This document shows, piece after piece, positions 4,022 through 12,104 of a stretch of DNA of 64,000 nucleotides; within the stretch, counting starts at the first letter, position 1; each line of letters opens with the position of its first letter. The stretch comes from Glycera tridactyla (Eukaryota), in the NCBI GenBank assembly GCA_965644265.1, contig OZ286462.1:51274001-51338000 (forward strand), in the 5' to 3' direction. The notes below the pieces were generated by a model. That model searched no databases. It was not told the origin of the DNA and worked only from the letters and a program-made list of their open reading frames with translations. Both the position numbers and the translations under genes were made by a program.

Positions 4022-4507
4022 AGGCCTCATTTCTAGGAATGAGCCTTTGCAGCTCCTTAGAAGGCTGGGCAAGCACTCGAGGTGAAGCATTCCATTCTAT
4101 CTCAAGGATATATAACTGTGAGGGAAGGAATGAGAAGCAGAGATCTTCTGGGAGCCTACGAGGACGGTCGCTGCCGAGATAGGACGAACTTCAGCTTCTC
4201 AGTCCTTCCCACTGCATTCTTGTACCTGTTGGAAGAGGGAAGGAATAAAGGACTTCATTTAACCTGGACAACATCGTTGGTCATTCATGTTGGTGAGCCT
4301 GGGTGAACAAAAGTGAGCCTAGGTGAGCCAGCTCCAGCCTATGAAGAGTCGATCCTGTGAGCAATCCCCCGCTCTTATGTGTCTGAGATGTGTCTACTAG
4401 GTGCTACTAGGAGATCATAAGTACATTTACTAGCCCGGGTATCAACTGTCTGGGTGACTGCTCTACAATCCTTGCTCGTCATGAACACGCCTGTAAACCA
4501 TCTTTGA

Positions 4508-4648
4508 CAGATACATCGTACTTGGACGACAAATGGGACAGTGTTTATTGTGAGAAACGAGGGAGAAGAAGCCAACCCCATCACAAGCGAGGACGATTTG
4601 CCGCGCATCACCAACGCAGATGAAAACACTGATCAAAACCAGGGATAA
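4508..4648 (+). pseudogene. C-terminal fragment of LINE ORF1p
   Basis: Manual translation QIHRTWTTNGTVFIVRNEGEEANPITSEDDLPRITNADENTDQNQG*. This matches the W(T/S).(D/N)G.(I/V)F....I...(D/E)DL C-terminal pattern typical of CR1/L2-group ORF1 proteins. There is an in-frame TGA at 4505-4507 immediately upstream. Confidence 0.65.
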
Positions 4649-4782
4649 TTCGTTTTTTCCAACGAAAATTCCTCCCGACGGCACTAATTCAATTATTGTA
4701 TGAATCTTGTGTGCTAGTTGTTAATAGTAAGCATTTTGAATAATGGACTACTTTTTCTGTGCATTCTTATTGTAATACAAGA

Positions 4783-4940
4783 CAATGGCGGTTATATGAC
4801 CAACCGCTCCCATGATTCCTTGCGAAATTTTTCGCAATTACCGGACAAATTCTCCCATGATGCTTTGCGAATCTCGACACTCAGCCAATCAGCGAGCTCC
4901 TTCCTCGAAGGGCTAGGCAAGAGGTACAAAATGGCGGCCG
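4783..4940 (+). promoter_or_regulatory. CpG-rich Pol II promoter-like cluster inside the LINE inter-ORF region (2x Staf/ZNF143-like, CCAAT box, YY1)
   Basis: CTCCCATGATTCCTTGCG (4807-4824) and CTCCCATGATGCTTTGCG (4852-4869) resemble the Staf/ZNF143 site. AGCCAATCAG is at 4883-4892, CAAAATGGCGGC (YY1) at 4927-4938, and a second AATGGCGG near 4784. Confidence 0.6.
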
Positions 4941-5042
4941 AGACCAGAATCATGAACATCACCCGGTATTTCAGAACAACTTAATGCCTTCATAATCACT
5001 TATAGGACACGAATTATTGCTACTTCAAGAGTTCGGTTACCT

Positions 5043-5195
5043 ATGGACCGACTAACGCCACCAGACAATCTTCGGAGGTAGAATAATAACTTTGCTAGAC
5101 GATTTATCTCCCTACTAATCGAGTTGTCATAAGAGTTAGACTGCATTCATCGAAGGGTGCTATGTGTACTTGCTCGGCGGTTCGTCTCGGTCCAT
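5043..5195 (+). other. Predicted multi-branch RNA structure in the LINE leader
   Basis: Closing stem ATGGACCGA (5043-5051) / TCGGTCCAT (5187-5195), extended by ACGCC/GGCG. Inner stems GGAGGTAG (5074-5081) / TTATCTCC (5104-5111) and GCATTC/GGGTGC (5143-5160). Confidence 0.5.
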
Positions 5196-5593
5196 CAATA
5201 ATACTCAACACTATTTTGTCTTAATGCATCAGCTACTACCTTAATATGTTTAAATGGCTGGTTCATCTAGATTTTTGGGCCCACACCATGGAGAGGGCTG
5301 ATACCTGAACTGATGACCATGACCATTTCCTGCAGTGTAAATATAGTATAACACCATGAACAGCACATAGAATACTCTACTCAAAGACAGGGATATATGA
5401 ACTAGTTGCTTGAAAACTTGCATGTAAGAGCTACAATGGCAGGCTATCTCTAAAAGTGGTGTTTCTGACATAAGAATAGCCAAAGATGGACTGAGATCGA
5501 ACGAACTTGTCTCATATGCATAATGTTGTTCCCGTTTGAAATTTATCTTGTATTCCAGCATTCAACACTGCCTCAGGTATACGACTCACTTAT

Positions 5594-5688
5594 GGATGGC
5601 GTTTAATCCACATGGATACCTCATCCTCTAGTTGTGTCTGATCCTTTTTAGACAAGGATGGCGTTTAACCCATATGGGCACCTCATCC
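5594..5688 (+). repeat. Two tandem 33-nt bulged hairpins (62 nt period) with a compensatory base change
   Basis: GGATGGCGTTTAATCCACATGGATACCTCATCC (5594-5626) and GGATGGCGTTTAACCCATATGGGCACCTCATCC (5656-5688). Confidence 0.75.
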
Positions 5689-5993
5689 ATATTGAAAGAC
5701 AAGTAGATGTATTCGTCAAGTAACATGTTAATGAAAGGCATGTAGCCGCATTGGTGAATATTATGTCATTATCTACGATATCGACCCTTATTCCTCTTGA
5801 GATCATATCACAAGGCAGACTTGACTTAGTTTGATCTGAATGCAATATACCAGACTGATCATGCACTGATAGTATGGTAGTTTTACTCATGGGGATCACT
5901 TACTGACCAGAAAGGGACTGTTTCACTAACGAACAAGGTTGATCTATCACCCCCCCCCCCTCCCTTTGGTAATCTTTATATATCAATAGTATA

Positions 5994-8900
5994 TTGATCT
6001 CATATAGAATATCTCCAGACACCGTCCTGAGAGTAAACGTGTGTGAATGTGAATCTTATATCACCCATCGCTCAATAGCAGCTATCATAGTACACAGAAC
6101 ATTGTTTCTGTTTAAAATGACCCTATATGGGTATCTCCATAACTGTTTCCCAGACACCTTTAGCTTGCAGATACTAATATATCGATCCGGTGACATAGAA
6201 AAGAACCCTGGACCTAACGAAATCACTGTCACAAATCTAAGAGAGATCAGTAGAGCTAAGGGAATCACCATAGCCCACCTGAACATCTGCAGTATCTTCA
6301 ATAAGCTGGACCATTTAAGACACTTACTATTCAACAGTGACATAGACCTGATGTATATCACAGAAAGCTGGTTAACTGGACATATTACTGATGCAGAGCT
6401 GAAAATATCAAATTACAACATACTCAGAAACGATAGAAAAGACAAGAGAGGGGGTGGTGTTTGTCTGTTTATTAAAGAAAAATACAATTTCTCTAGAGTA
6501 TCAGAATTAAGCATAAGCAACAATGACATTGAAAGCCTAGGCATACAGTTGATATTGCCACATACAAGGAAAATTCTCATAACAGGTATTTATAGACCAC
6601 CCAATGGGAACATAGGGAATTTCTTTGACAACATGGGAGAGTTTACAGAATTCACACTGAATAATCCAGATGCAGAAGTGGAATACATTGGAGACTTTAA
6701 CATTGACTTGACTCAGAAAAAAGCAAGGGACACAGTATCTCTACTCAGATGGGCAGGTCTATGCGGACAACAGTCTTTCTTAAATGGTCCAACCAGGATA
6801 ACTGCAGATACTTCTACATGTATAGATCTAATCTTCTCAAATAGACCTGAAGTGATGAATCAAACAGGCCATTTTCGCCACGGAATCAGTGACCATGACT
6901 TGATTTTCTATAGCCGAAAGCTGATCAAACCCAAGGGAGAGACTAAATTTATTCACGCCCGGAGTTTTAACAAATATGATAAAACCAGCTTCTGTGAAGA
7001 CCTACGGAACACAAACTGGAATATCATACTAGCGCAGACTGACGCAAACGAAGCTTGGTCTATTTTTAAGGATATGTTCTTACCAATTTGTGACAGACAT
7101 GCCCCATATAAGAGGATCAAGATTAAGGGTAGCCTACCACCCTGGTTGACACATGAGTACTTCTCTGCAAGCGACCAACGTGACTATCTGTATAGAATCT
7201 TCAAGCAGACTAAGAATAAGGACGATGAAATCATAGCAAAAAGGGCAAAAAATTATGCAAATATGTTAAATCGAAACCTTAAGAAGGAATATGTTCAAAA
7301 TCAAATAGATCGCTTTAGAACTGATAGCAAGAATTTATGGAAAGTCATCCGGAATATTTTACCCAACAATAAATCTACAGATATGCCCAAAACTACAATC
7401 TGTGACAGGTCTGACAATACTGACATTGCAAATGCATTGAACCAGCATTTTGTAGGAGTGGGGCCAAAATTAGCAAGTATGCTGCCAAATGGTGACAGAA
7501 GACTAATCCCCGAAATAGACAATCTAGAACTGTCCTTTGAATTTCACAATATAGAAACCAGTTTTGTACTGAAGTCACTATCTACACTGTCCTGCTCAAA
7601 GGCAACAGGCCTTGATAATCTGCATGCCCAACTATTGAGGGATAGTAGTGAGATTGTGTCACATGCAATTGCCTATATAATGAATTTGTCAATTGGTACA
7701 AGTGTGTTTCCAGAGGAATGGAAGGAAGCCAAAGTCACCCCCTTGTATAAGGATGGAGACAGGAATTCTCCTTCTAACTATCGTCCAATTTCAGTCTTGC
7801 CCATCTTAGGTAAGATATTGGAAAGATTCGTACACGACCAGATATATGCTTTTATGAATGATCATAATCTTTTTCATCCATCCCAGAGTGGGTTCAGGAA
7901 AAATCATTCCACAACTACCTGTGCAATTTCTGTAACAAACGACATCCTAAGTGCAATGGATAGAGGATCTAGTGTTGGTGCTGTATTTCTCGACCTGAAA
8001 AAGGCTTTTGACACCGTCGACCATGCCCTGCTCTGTAAGAAACTTGCGGAGTACGGTATGGGCGACGGTGTCACAGGCTGGATAAATAGCTATTTGTCAA
8101 ATCGACATCAAAGAACGACTTTCCGAGACAAGCTCTCAGATAGAATGTTAATACGATGTGGAGTCCCTCAGGGTTCCATATTGGGACCATTGTTGTTTGT
8201 GATTTACCTCAATGATTTGCCGAAAGTACTACTGAATTCAAAAATCGCAATGTATGCAGATGACACTGCAATCTACTATGAAAGCACCACCACTGAAGAC
8301 ATAAATCTGAAATTACAGGAAGACCTGGAACTGATGGCAAATTGGCTAGTTGTCAATCGCCTGTCACTGAATGCACAGAAAACTAACACTATGCTTTTTA
8401 CAAGAATGCGGCTTTTTTACCAAGGCCAACTTGACCTGCATATTGGCAATACGCAATTGGAACAGGTTGAACACATGAAATATCTGGGTTTATACCTTGA
8501 CAAACGGCTTAGTTTTGACAATCATATTGAAAAATTGTGCAACAAATCAAAAGGCAAGTTATATGCATTGGGGAGAGTACGGAAATACATGAAACAAGAA
8601 ACTGCCTTGAAATTATACAAATCACTAATCTTACCAGTCATAGACTATGGTGATGTTTTATATGGAACTGCAAATCAAAATTCATTAATGAAAGTTCAAA
8701 GGATCCAAAACTCGGCCTGTCGAATTGTTTTGTTAGCTGATAGACTAACAAGCACAGCCTCAATGCATGAACAGCTAGGCCTTTTGAATCTTGCAGAAAG
8801 AAGATTGTATCATGACTGCATTTTTGTCTTCAAATGTGTTAAAAAACTGTCACCAACTTATTTGCATGAAATTATAACTCCACTGTATCTTCATCATGGT

Positions 8901-9080
8901 CGTAGTACCAGAGGAGTCACTCAAGGAAATGCTGTTGTACCAAGAAGCAGAACAAATGCTGGAATGCAATCCTTCTCCGCACGAGGTCCATTTACCTGGA
9001 ACAAACTACCACAAAATCTCAAGGAAATGGACGACCTTAGTTCTTTTAAATTTGCACTGATCAATTGGTTGAAAACCTGA
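5994..9080 (+). CDS. LINE ORF2p: 2A peptide + APE endonuclease + reverse transcriptase (first ATG at 6117)
   Basis: Uninterrupted 1028-codon ORF. APE motifs: HLNICS, ITESWL, RGGGVCLFI, GIYRPPN, GDFNID, PTRIT..TCIDLIF, SDHDLI. RT motifs: YRPISVLP, QSGFR, FLDLKKAFDTVDH, GVPQGSILGPLLF, YADD, KYLG. CR1/L2-type C-terminus (TWNKLP...FK..L). Confidence 0.97.
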   Translation: MISYRISPDTVLRVNVCECESYITHRSIAAIIVHRTLFLFKMTLYGYLHNCFPDTFSLQILIYRSGDIEKNPGPNEITVTNLREISRAKGITIAHLNICSIFNKLDHLRHLLFNSDIDLMYITESWLTGHITDAELKISNYNILRNDRKDKRGGGVCLFIKEKYNFSRVSELSISNNDIESLGIQLILPHTRKILITGIYRPPNGNIGNFFDNMGEFTEFTLNNPDAEVEYIGDFNIDLTQKKARDTVSLLRWAGLCGQQSFLNGPTRITADTSTCIDLIFSNRPEVMNQTGHFRHGISDHDLIFYSRKLIKPKGETKFIHARSFNKYDKTSFCEDLRNTNWNIILAQTDANEAWSIFKDMFLPICDRHAPYKRIKIKGSLPPWLTHEYFSASDQRDYLYRIFKQTKNKDDEIIAKRAKNYANMLNRNLKKEYVQNQIDRFRTDSKNLWKVIRNILPNNKSTDMPKTTICDRSDNTDIANALNQHFVGVGPKLASMLPNGDRRLIPEIDNLELSFEFHNIETSFVLKSLSTLSCSKATGLDNLHAQLLRDSSEIVSHAIAYIMNLSIGTSVFPEEWKEAKVTPLYKDGDRNSPSNYRPISVLPILGKILERFVHDQIYAFMNDHNLFHPSQSGFRKNHSTTTCAISVTNDILSAMDRGSSVGAVFLDLKKAFDTVDHALLCKKLAEYGMGDGVTGWINSYLSNRHQRTTFRDKLSDRMLIRCGVPQGSILGPLLFVIYLNDLPKVLLNSKIAMYADDTAIYYESTTTEDINLKLQEDLELMANWLVVNRLSLNAQKTNTMLFTRMRLFYQGQLDLHIGNTQLEQVEHMKYLGLYLDKRLSFDNHIEKLCNKSKGKLYALGRVRKYMKQETALKLYKSLILPVIDYGDVLYGTANQNSLMKVQRIQNSACRIVLLADRLTSTASMHEQLGLLNLAERRLYHDCIFVFKCVKKLSPTYLHEIITPLYLHHGRSTRGVTQGNAVVPRSRTNAGMQSFSARGPFTWNKLPQNLKEMDDLSSFKFALINWLKT
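6159..6215 (+). other. 2A-like StopGo (ribosome skipping) sequence FSLQILIYRSGDIEKNPG|P
   Basis: Exact match to the D(V/I)ExNPG|P consensus (GAC ATA GAA AAG AAC CCT GGA CCT, 6192-6215), preceded by a hydrophobic helical tract and located directly before the APE domain. Confidence 0.9.
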
Positions 9081-9345
9081 AAGAAACATATTGTTTATAT
9101 CATCCAATACTTGAGCTATTCCGATGTGATTACAAATCTATTTGTATGAGAGCCCGTGGTGAACCAGGAATAGACGCATGCGAGAAGGATTGAATTGATC
9201 ATATCGACAGAGTGAGAACCTTCGAATTGGGTGATTGCATCCTCGAGATGTCCCAAGTACTTTTCTCACATTGTTATCTTATAATGTGTTGTATTATGTA
9301 CACTCGAAGCAAAATAAAAGACTATTATTATTATTATTATTATTA
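9081..9345 (+). other. LINE 3' UTR with nested stem-loop, polyA signal and (TAT)n tail
   Basis: GTGAGAA (9212-9218) / TTCTCAC (9263-9269), TTGGG/CCCAA and CATC/GATG nested stems. AATAAA at 9313, then TATTATTAT... to 9345. Confidence 0.8.
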
Positions 9346-12104
9346 ATATGTCAGTATAATTTCAAAAATCTGTTGAGTCCATTCAAAAGTCAAATGACTG
9401 AAAATGGTTGAACCGTCAGTCTCATGAATTCGATCACTCAATCAGGACCAGGGTCGACACATCCCAGTATACATAGAGGAAGATTCGATGATGAAGGTTC
9501 ATCTGCAGTTTCAAGGGATCTCACAACAGTGAATTCACAGTAGCCAGTATTTGAGGCAACTATGTGGATGTATTTTGGACATGTCTATATCAGAATCTCT
9601 TATTTTGAGTTCCGCAAAACCTAAGATTTCATAACACGACTTTTCTCTCCGTCACTCTGTCCACTTCTGATTGGGACACTGCGAAAATCATTCCTGTTAG
9701 GTAACCAATTTCATTACTCTCTTATCACATGCATTTGTAGCTTTTCCTGGGAGCAATAATCAAAGAAATTAGAGAAACATTATTGGCATTCAGATTCAGG
9801 GTTTACCATCATAGTCTGTGTCATCAGTATTTCAAGTGATGCATCAACTTTTTTGAGGCCATTTCAGTGAAAATGAAAGATTATCCGAAATTCAGAGGGG
9901 CAGATGGTCATGTGGTGAGAATCCATTAAGGGGATGTTATCCTCAGAGAGGATTGTCGATAGATAGTGAAAAACCCCGAACAGTTCGTGAAAACGATGAT
10001 TAGGTCTGTTTTTGTGTTGTTGTACAGGACACTCAATAGCTTGTGGCAAGCTTGAATCAGTTTTTGTCAACAAGAGAAGAGTTGCACTTACATAGTCTTC
10101 TGTGCCCACATGTCATTAAATAGCCCTGAAGACACGCGGACCTTTGACCGCATCCTGTCTGCCCCCAGAGTTCACACGGCTGTGACCCAACATCAAAGAG
10201 TTTGCCAAGTACTCCGGGGAATTTCATGACCACTTTCAAATTTATGATCTAGGATATCATTACAGAGAAGAACTCTTGCTTACTTCATGTTGTTGGTTGG
10301 TTGAAGTGTAATGTAACATTAGTCCCATATGTGCTATATTGGGATGCCTGTATAATGGGATCATTAGAGAATCTCCTGGAACATCTGTTCGTATAAAGAT
10401 CTCAAATGAAGAATCATTTTGGAACATGATAAGAACATTGGATGGGAATTGCTTTGATTTTCTGTGCTGAAAGATTAATTCACACATGAACGAACCTACA
10501 AACTGCATCATCTGTGAATTTTTGGTAATCATTGCCAAATGATCGTAGCCAATCAGTACATTGTCAATTACAACCTCTCAGATTTTCGGGGGCCATTGGC
10601 TAATAACTTGGTAGCCAGCAGGCAAATTTAGTACAAATAGGCTACCCTGAGGTAACACTGTAGAAGCTTGAGAATATGGGATAGATGTTCTATACTTGAA
10701 CAGCTTCTTTATGTTTATTACTGAAAAATGCTTTGCTGCAACTGTGTTTGGAAATGCCTTCATCTTTCACGCTGTTGACAGTGATCAAACTTGAAGTTAC
10801 AAGATGATGTTGAAATCCTCATCAGACTTTTTCAGTGTGCGCACATATTTTGGCTTGCAGGGTTCGGCCTTTAAGGGATTTCATTCTAATTTACTTGCAG
10901 AGTCTTAGTAAATTACTTAATAATTGTACACCCAAAGTCTGTTGACAGTTTTGACGGGTGATAATTGGAAGGTAATTGACAGTCTTTCTATATGGAGAAT
11001 ACTGTTACCTCAAGTAACCTGGGCAAAGTCATTCCTTTCTCTCCAGGCATCTTTCAAAATCTTTGATTTGTATAATGAGGTAGAAGATTGCCTGTGAGTT
11101 CTTAGCTCCATCTTGAAATATCCTCTTTCTCAACAGTCTTGTGGTGAACACTCAAGGTTTTTATATGCTCTGCTTCCATACTTGTGAGAAAATACAAATA
11201 TATGGAAAAGAAAATGAAAAAGTTGGCGTTGATAGCAGTGCCCTCATTTGAGCCTGTGATCAAGCATAGCTTCCGGTTGTTACCATGAAGTTTGATATTT
11301 TGGTCAGGATCAATGAAGGGAATTTATCACTTGATAATGCATTAAATCAAATTGAAAATGAACATAATTTGACTCATCTTGGAGAAAAATTGGAAAATAT
11401 TTTTCTTAAAGATTGAAATTTTTTGAGGATGGAATATATGCATAAGTGCACAGATAACAATATGATACATCATGCTCAGATGAAAAGTTGAACATGGCTC
11501 ACATCCATTGAAGCTCATTATCATGTTCCTCAAAAGGTTGATCCTAATCAGTTGATGGATCTCTCAAAATTACAAAACAAAAATGACACCTGTAAGTGAA
11601 TTCTTTAATGTTGAATATGAACAAATCTTTTTTGAGTTTTCCCTTTTCGATTTTCACTTTTTAAGTTTGAGATCCACACTATCCATGGTTAGTTCTGGTG
11701 TAGTATGGTCAAAGATGGTGGATGTTAGGTAGAGTTATCTATTAGTACACGGATGTGTATCGGTGATTGATTTGAGGCGGCTGTCACAGCCATAGCTTTG
11801 AGTGAAGAAGCATGCTTTCTGCTGGTGTTTTCAAGTGTCGCAAGTAAATCACCGCGTGGCGAAGGATAATGTTACATGATGAAATATTGTAATGAGCACT
11901 GTATGAGGCCACCTTACACTCATGTGACTCACAAACGATCGTATATCAGCGAGAATCGATACCATTTCAGGTTGCCGTTAATAAATCATGGTTGTGTTCA
12001 AGTCAAGAATGCATAGCTTGGAAACAACGAGCGATGCCCTCTTTTCGTACCCTTTGCTGGCCACTGATGACAGGCATGATGTGATCTTGAAAGGGATTAC
12101 TTAC

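Follow-up and report, generated by a model that had tools for sequence, protein, structure and literature searches.

The window, a 64,000-nt stretch of contig OZ286462.1 of Glycera tridactyla, carries a 5'-truncated copy of a two-ORF APE-type LINE with an intact ORF2 (4510-9349; this and all features below lie on the forward strand), delimited by alignment to a full-length copy on another contig (L031/L032), with which it shares 4828 of 4840 aligned bases. Full-length copies have about 1.0 kb more 5' sequence than the window copy. ORF2 occupies a single stop-to-stop frame of 1035 codons (5973-9080), within which a 2A motif is in frame with the coding sequence downstream; the part past the predicted skip site (6213-9080) encodes an APE endonuclease (Pfam Exo_endo_phos, residues 62-260; 6300-6896) and a reverse transcriptase (RVT_1, residues 552-793; 7770-8495). 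The 3' end of the copy is marked by an AATAAA-like signal and a (TAT)n tail (9313-9349). APE and RT domains in one ORF, dispersed copies, 5' truncation and a simple-repeat tail identify an APE-type non-LTR retrotransposon; no target-site duplication was seen at the window copy. Frames of at least 1035 codons occur in nine of the 14 closest copies, at 86-100% identity over the 128 residues searched, and genome G000 holds many low-copy lineages with intact ORF2 side by side.

At its 5' end the window copy retains the last ~45 codons and the stop of ORF1 (4510-4648). Full-length copies begin at a common point, and their 316-aa ORF1 starts about 215 nt farther on; by its modelled fold ORF1 is an L1-like coiled coil-RRM-CTD protein, that is, of type II: the best 10 Foldseek matches to the model of the 316-aa ORF1 of locus L034 were human L1 ORF1p (E 4.6e-6 to 6.2e-5). 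Sequence searches with ORF1 gave no informative Pfam or PDB match, and Transposase_22 was not returned by Pfam. ORF1 lay upstream in 55 of 84 other loci for which upstream DNA was fetched (3 kb for 80 of them), and where its end could be placed (62 of 91 loci) it was separated from the endonuclease by 1010-2880 nt. The inter-ORF spacer of the window copy (4649-6116) is 1468 nt long and contains 40 ATGs; in eight family copies it spans 1338-1468 nt. Within it lie two tandem bulged hairpins (5594-5688; direct repeat D1), the copies at 5594-5626 and 5656-5688 each having an outer stem, a UUAA bulge and a short inner stem. This architecture recurs 42 times in 30 of 62 spacers, against 0.15 occurrences expected, and never on the reverse strand; its stem sequences differ between subfamilies. 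Farther downstream, a C-run and an in-frame TAA (5950-5972; TAA at 5970-5972) form the 5' edge of an indel-free zone: among eight copies no gap block falls in the 152 nt upstream of the ATG at 6117, versus 70 in the preceding 1316 nt of spacer. The C-run stands 200-315 nt before the skip site in all 18 representatives shown. It is usually followed by a G-run, the two making a small hairpin that marks the 5' limit of the open leader, and in one large subfamily an ATG follows it by ~20 nt, lost in some members.

A promoter-like block occupies the upstream part of the spacer (4807-4937), with Staf/ZNF143-like sites at 4807 and 4852, CCAAT at 4885 and a YY1-like site, AAAATGGCGG, at 4928; the factor names are those we presume for these sites, and the patterns were fitted after the sequences had been inspected. 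CCAAT occurs 214-279 nt after the ORF1 stop in 62/62 loci, versus 62 of 272 background windows, and the pair of CCAAT and a YY1-like site 28 or 44-46 nt farther on is in place in 61 of the 62, in a block about 220-320 nt after the ORF1 stop. Elsewhere this signature was found twice in 84,297 nt of spacer, was absent from the reverse strand, and occurs once in the 64-kb window, at 4885. Staf/ZNF143-like sites are present in 55/62 loci (2/171 background windows), and ETS-like sites, E-boxes and octamers in 38, 27 and 16 loci (7, 5 and 7 in background), respectively. CpG observed/expected is 1.09 for the block, against a comparison value of 0.57. Since the blocks fall into 17 sequence clusters, the sites turn over and the layout holds. 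Clustered sites with fixed order, spacing and strand, such as define an RNA polymerase II promoter, are thus found here, by patterns set post hoc. Upstream-type sites with a YY1 site after them are how a promoter is laid out when transcription begins between the two. A promoter at this position cannot yield full-length RNA, and it would therefore produce an ORF2-only RNA or act as an enhancer. The block is separated from ORF2 by 33 ATGs, which would put ORF2 out of reach of simple scanning. No pile-up of 5' ends was found at the block: 11 of 13 family matches span it and two start downstream, and copy 5' ends across the clade are scattered, with no excess there. Two other identities for the block could be dismissed, a coding role for the ATG in the YY1-like site by its frames of only 3-84 codons, and a separate inserted element by the location of all 13 genome matches within LINE copies.

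The original prediction placed a 2A-like StopGo peptide at its usual site in an APE-type non-LTR ORF2, and this is borne out, with conservation under selection. The translation of 6117-6215 is exactly MTLYGYLHNCFPDTFSLQILIYRSGDIEKNPGP, as predicted; the 2A-like peptide spans 6156-6215, its core GDIEKNPGP 6189-6215, and the predicted skip falls between 6212 and 6213. The core fits the class A pattern (D/G/C/N)(V/I)ExNPGP, with Gly before Asp, and, over all six frames, the window has no second D[VI]ExNPGP (residue frequencies give an expectation of 4.5e-5). In a DNA search, the same genome yielded 40 matches. Fourteen are close copies that include the 2A site, and this family survey, proposed with the prediction, found the motif kept in 13 of the 14: 12 are canonical and one reads DMEKNPGP, and the remaining copy (L007) lost it through a 19-nt frameshifting deletion. 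For pN/pS, 11 lineages were used, leaving out an identical twin, a near-twin and the deleted copy. Variation in the core DIEKNPGP is confined to third positions (pS 0.368, pN 0.010, pN/pS 0.03; bootstrap 0.00-0.08), and the value for the 2A peptide rises to 1.25-1.39 in the other frames. The core stands below even the endonuclease (0.10), and values increase to 0.23 for the seven residues preceding the core, 0.55 for the first 18 leader codons and 0.79 for the pre-ATG codons. The 2A core is under strong purifying selection, and the leader under weak amino-acid constraint.

In a wider protein search 150 of 8425 candidates were scored, 30 were taken as loci and 80 more were fetched. An NPGP-type motif was present in 113 of 116 unique related loci (80 canonical, 33 variant, three with none), a count biased upward because the search query contained the motif. 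Among 120 listed homologues from other genomes, of which only 28 had at least 45 residues before the recognised endonuclease start, 20 carried a 2A-like motif, canonical in 10. Whole subfamilies have non-canonical cores, namely GDIQL, GDISE, GDIAE and GDICE (L020, L022, L025, L030 and the L118-L154 groups). Two loci, L076 and L083, bear two tandem 2A motifs ~48 codons apart; apparently these are recombinants that fuse one subfamily's leader and 2A, in frame, with the 2A of a second subfamily. L073 and L074 have a leader like that of the L145 group but an endonuclease that groups with L024/L077, which suggests that 5' modules may have been swapped between lineages.

Judged from its sequence, this 2A is likely to release ORF2p with Pro at the N-terminus. 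A 2A core needs a suitable upstream context, and several canonical CR1-clade motifs proved almost inactive, in the available account of Odon 2013 (PMC3708506); in that of Snell and Matreyek (PMC13405545), activity is tied to leucines at -14 to -10. The family majority reads LQKLLYLSG upstream, with four to five Leu at -19 to -10, and shares the LLLLSG-like upstream class of the leucine-rich eukaryotic class A peptides set out in the available part of the latter study; the window copy and its twin differ from the family in reading LQILIYRSG (-14 K>I, -12 L>I, -10 L>R), which leaves the window copy with two Leu, two Ile and Arg at -10. In the portion of their table at hand (PMC13405545), two peptides are of note, the closest assayed one that has Tyr at -11 (IISLLQCIYLSGDVETNPGP, ending IYLSGDVETNPGP) and the sole peptide with an identical core, and both are classed as skipping. 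Of 62 R-S-G-D[VI]E rows, 27 (21 of 56 RSGDVE and 6 of 6 RSGDIE) could be tallied there, giving eight that skipped, five that fell off and 14 with no skip. The original prediction supposed that this variant might be new to assays, which holds for the four supplement files searched from that study: neither the window peptide nor the family-majority peptide is in them. On these comparisons the family motif very probably recodes in its host, and for the window variant the chances of efficient recoding are evenly balanced; its LIYRSG, in place of the family LLYLSG, may skip poorly.

The predicted 32-aa leader is uncertain. In its favour, all 13 family copies carry the ATG at 6117-6119 together with a -3 purine, which speaks for it as a start in the window family. 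Against it, this ATG is missing from sister subfamilies, falling within a 12-nt gap relative to one of them (leader lengths differ between window family and sister by 3, 12 and 9 nt), and the frame is open from 5973, 48 codons farther upstream (5973-6116), so that ATG 6117 is a candidate start only. Those 48 codons include an out-of-frame ATG-TGA start-stop (6047-6052), 70 nt before the ORF2 ATG and invariant in the 12 family copies checked. No stop interrupts the pre-ATG codons in 11 lineages; the simulated probability of this is 0.07, and 0.065 and 0.24 in two other families, with boundaries picked after inspection. Across loci, leaders are open for a median of 89 codons, and of the 102 loci whose open leader runs to 55 codons or more ahead of the skip site, 17 lack any Met preceding the 2A. 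Eleven of these Met-less loci lie in open frames of 1028-1075 codons. In six, no in-frame Met appears until 45-58 residues after the skip, which places it downstream of the conserved HLN at +21, and in five there is none in the 103-125 residues examined. Met-less subfamilies would thus need a non-AUG start or an AUG gained by splicing.

A candidate module for a non-AUG start (6075-6111) consists of an in-frame ATA at 6075 and a hairpin at 6094-6111. One leader motif contains an Ile, located at codon -35 to -86, whose codon is ATA in all 64 loci that fit the peptide pattern; over the first 89 codons downstream of the skip, ATA accounts for 408 of 1089 Ile codons. Three Ile-conserved endonuclease columns show mixed Ile codons, and the ATA-bearing lineages are set apart by long branches. 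In some lineages ATA is absent, with TCA, CTA, TTA, CCA or GTA instead, and other lineages keep the hairpin without ATA. The hairpin begins 17 nt after the ATA, and stem pairs 1-5 are paired in 33 of 33 representatives with two stem types, by our own count across families, in which the two types amount to about one swap. Weak start codons are aided by a hairpin ~14 nt downstream (Kozak). RNAalifold, run over 24 ATA-hairpin sequences whose two stem types differ in length by 1 nt, returned no common structure; nor did the hairpin show compensatory changes within the window family. A purine stands at -3 of the ATA in 63 of 73 loci overall, and in only four of 13 in the AUG-bearing window family. 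The 22 codons upstream of the ATA are likewise stop-free, a test made partly circular by the pre-selection of loci for open leaders. As neighbouring bases are conserved too, the ATA-hairpin may serve a different purpose at the RNA level. In the window family we give initiation at AUG 6117 slightly better than an even chance; AUA 6075 or a codon farther upstream is a weaker though serious candidate, and a spliced-in AUG an improbable one.

Whichever of these starts is used, the protein made beyond the skip would be identical, and in this lies the simplest role for a 2A here. In the mechanism we favour, ORF2 would be transcribed from the spacer block; the ribosome would skip the Gly-Pro bond just before the endonuclease, freeing a throw-away leader, so that the N-terminus of ORF2p would be Pro regardless of the codon at which the ribosome began; and partial drop-off at the 2A would hold ORF2p low. 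We regard the skip itself, with loss of the leader and a fixed N-terminal Pro, as probable, and judge it likely that ORF2 has its own promoter and that the 2A sets the ORF2p N-terminus whatever the start codon. A broader claim, for which we would argue only tentatively, is that the whole clade no longer relies on bicistronic translation, with a housekeeping-type promoter for ORF2, a hairpin-assisted AUA start in several subfamilies, and a 2A that trims a variable leader and so gives every enzyme molecule an identical first residue, Pro.

Two other readings concern the peptide itself. The motif might be kept for pausing or a lower protein level and seldom split the chain, the LIYRSG variant being a weak or dead skipper. 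The 14 non-skipping peptides with Arg at -10 in the tally above would accord with this, as would the non-canonical cores of 33 of the 113 clade motifs (GDIQL, GDISE and GDIAE among them) and the 59% of tested ORF2p-linked peptides that lowered protein abundance in the available data of Snell and Matreyek (PMC13405545). Yet the core is constrained more than the enzyme itself, Arg at -10 recurs in 14 of 113 motif-bearing loci from several lineages, and the variant lineage of window copy and twin has moved recently, as its two copies are 99.7% alike and one is full-length; we therefore think rare splitting unlikely. Far less probable is a proposal made with the original prediction, that an unskipped hydrophobic leader acts as a signal-like sequence and gives ORF2p dual targeting, part of it entering the secretory pathway. 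There is precedent in sea-urchin NLR proteins, which likewise have an N-terminal 2A (Roulston 2016, PMC4981915, in the part available), and most family copies have hydrophobic residues at the beginning of the longer pre-ATG frame (8-residue hydropathy 2.4-3.0). The sea-urchin signal sequences have long Leu runs, however, and the window leader has none: the 32-mer has a GRAVY of -0.16 and a longest hydrophobic run of 3, its best 8-residue hydropathy is 1.8 (1.2-1.8 over 11 family copies), and Leu-to-Pro changes occur in the leader of family copies. By these measures it lacks a hydrophobic core and tolerates Pro, which runs counter to both the signal-like character and the dual targeting, and the pre-ATG hydrophobicity may merely reflect T-rich codons (pN/pS 0.79).

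The remaining readings leave the 2A unchanged and differ in how ribosomes reach it. Ribosomes might enter a full-length two-ORF RNA internally, at the structured 3' portion of the spacer, and so translate ORF2, with the block serving as an enhancer or antisense promoter. IRES-like entry was proposed for long spacers in the available text of Luke 2013 (PMC3894237), conserved sense-strand RNA features (bulged hairpins, C-run and ATA-hairpin) do lie between the block and ORF2, and the failure of any copy to start at the block also fits. That last observation loses force if RNA without ORF1 is simply a poor template; moreover, the block has a single orientation, CCAAT then YY1-like on the sense strand, and Rfam gave no match in 4400-6400 at E<=5, so we hold internal entry to be doubtful, though not negligible. 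Splicing out of a spacer intron, joining an upstream AUG (of ORF1 or the YY1-like site) to the leader, would account for Met-less leaders and remove the upstream ATGs, and a CAG at 6012-6018 is kept in the family alignment. By inspection, however, subfamilies share no donor or acceptor that keeps its phase, the frames from the ATG in the YY1-like site are short, as given above, and none of the 62 loci with ORF1 is a spacer-less copy (shortest spacer 1010 nt); we consider splicing improbable.

A 2A at the start of a LINE ORF2 is published (Odon 2013, PMC3708506; Luke 2013, PMC3894237), and in the available parts of these accounts L1Tc, Ingi and CR1-17/26_BF have the same GD(V/I)ExNPGP in the ORF2 N-terminal region, directly before APE. 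Most of the ~50 elements described there lack ORF1; CR1-26_BF, CR1-53_BF and CR1-1_LG have both and were read as intermediates in ORF1 loss, to which the published model ties the 2A. The Glycera clade differs from these elements in combining ORF1 and 2A across a diversified clade, with a long spacer and Met-less leaders, and the presence of ORF1 in its full-length copies sets it apart from single-ORF 2A LINEs. The same parts of the two papers describe no spacer promoter. LINE ORF2 2As are a recognised group in the Snell and Matreyek screen (PMC13405545, as available), and further 2A-like peptides appear in the accessible portions of recent work (Li et al. 2026, PMC12846837; Cell Rep 2025, PMC12338488). 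The nearest parallel for an internal promoter is Drosophila TART, an element with two ORFs in which a transcription start (5b) has been mapped ahead of ORF2, from where RNA containing ORF2 alone could arise; TART differs in its short spacer, in a site seen only in S2 cells, and in the lack of any mention of a conserved promoter block or 2A in the available text (PMC1636488). TART was the only lead found in the literature to a promoter between ORFs or an AUA start in LINEs, in a search mostly outside subscription journals, so that absence from print is not established. In architecture and ORF1 type, rather than by RT phylogeny, the element resembles CR1-group LINEs (CR1, L2, Crack or Daphne) with a type II (Tnp22, L1-like) ORF1, which in the available descriptions (Metcalfe and Casane 2014, PMC4120745; Stuart et al. 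2026, PMC13343379) have the same APE+RT ORF2, coiled coil-RRM-CTD ORF1 and simple-repeat tail.

The 2A itself is thus a further instance of a class published in 2013, and what is newer is its setting: a two-ORF clade, a promoter-like block in the spacer, and Met-less leaders. How ORF2 is produced in long-spacer LINEs was stated as an open question in the available text of Luke et al. 2013 (PMC3894237), and the clade offers cheap tests in its 130-nt promoter-like block, its candidate non-AUG start and natural 2A variants with one to seven Leu. The joint persistence of 2A and ORF1 across deep lineages argues against the 2A as a replacement for ORF1. If the clade does dispense with bicistronic translation, ORF2p would act in trans on ORF1p-coated full-length RNA, and 5'-truncated copies like that in the window would remain able to produce the enzyme; should the spacer promoter be real, seemingly dead copies without a 5' end could still supply reverse transcriptase.
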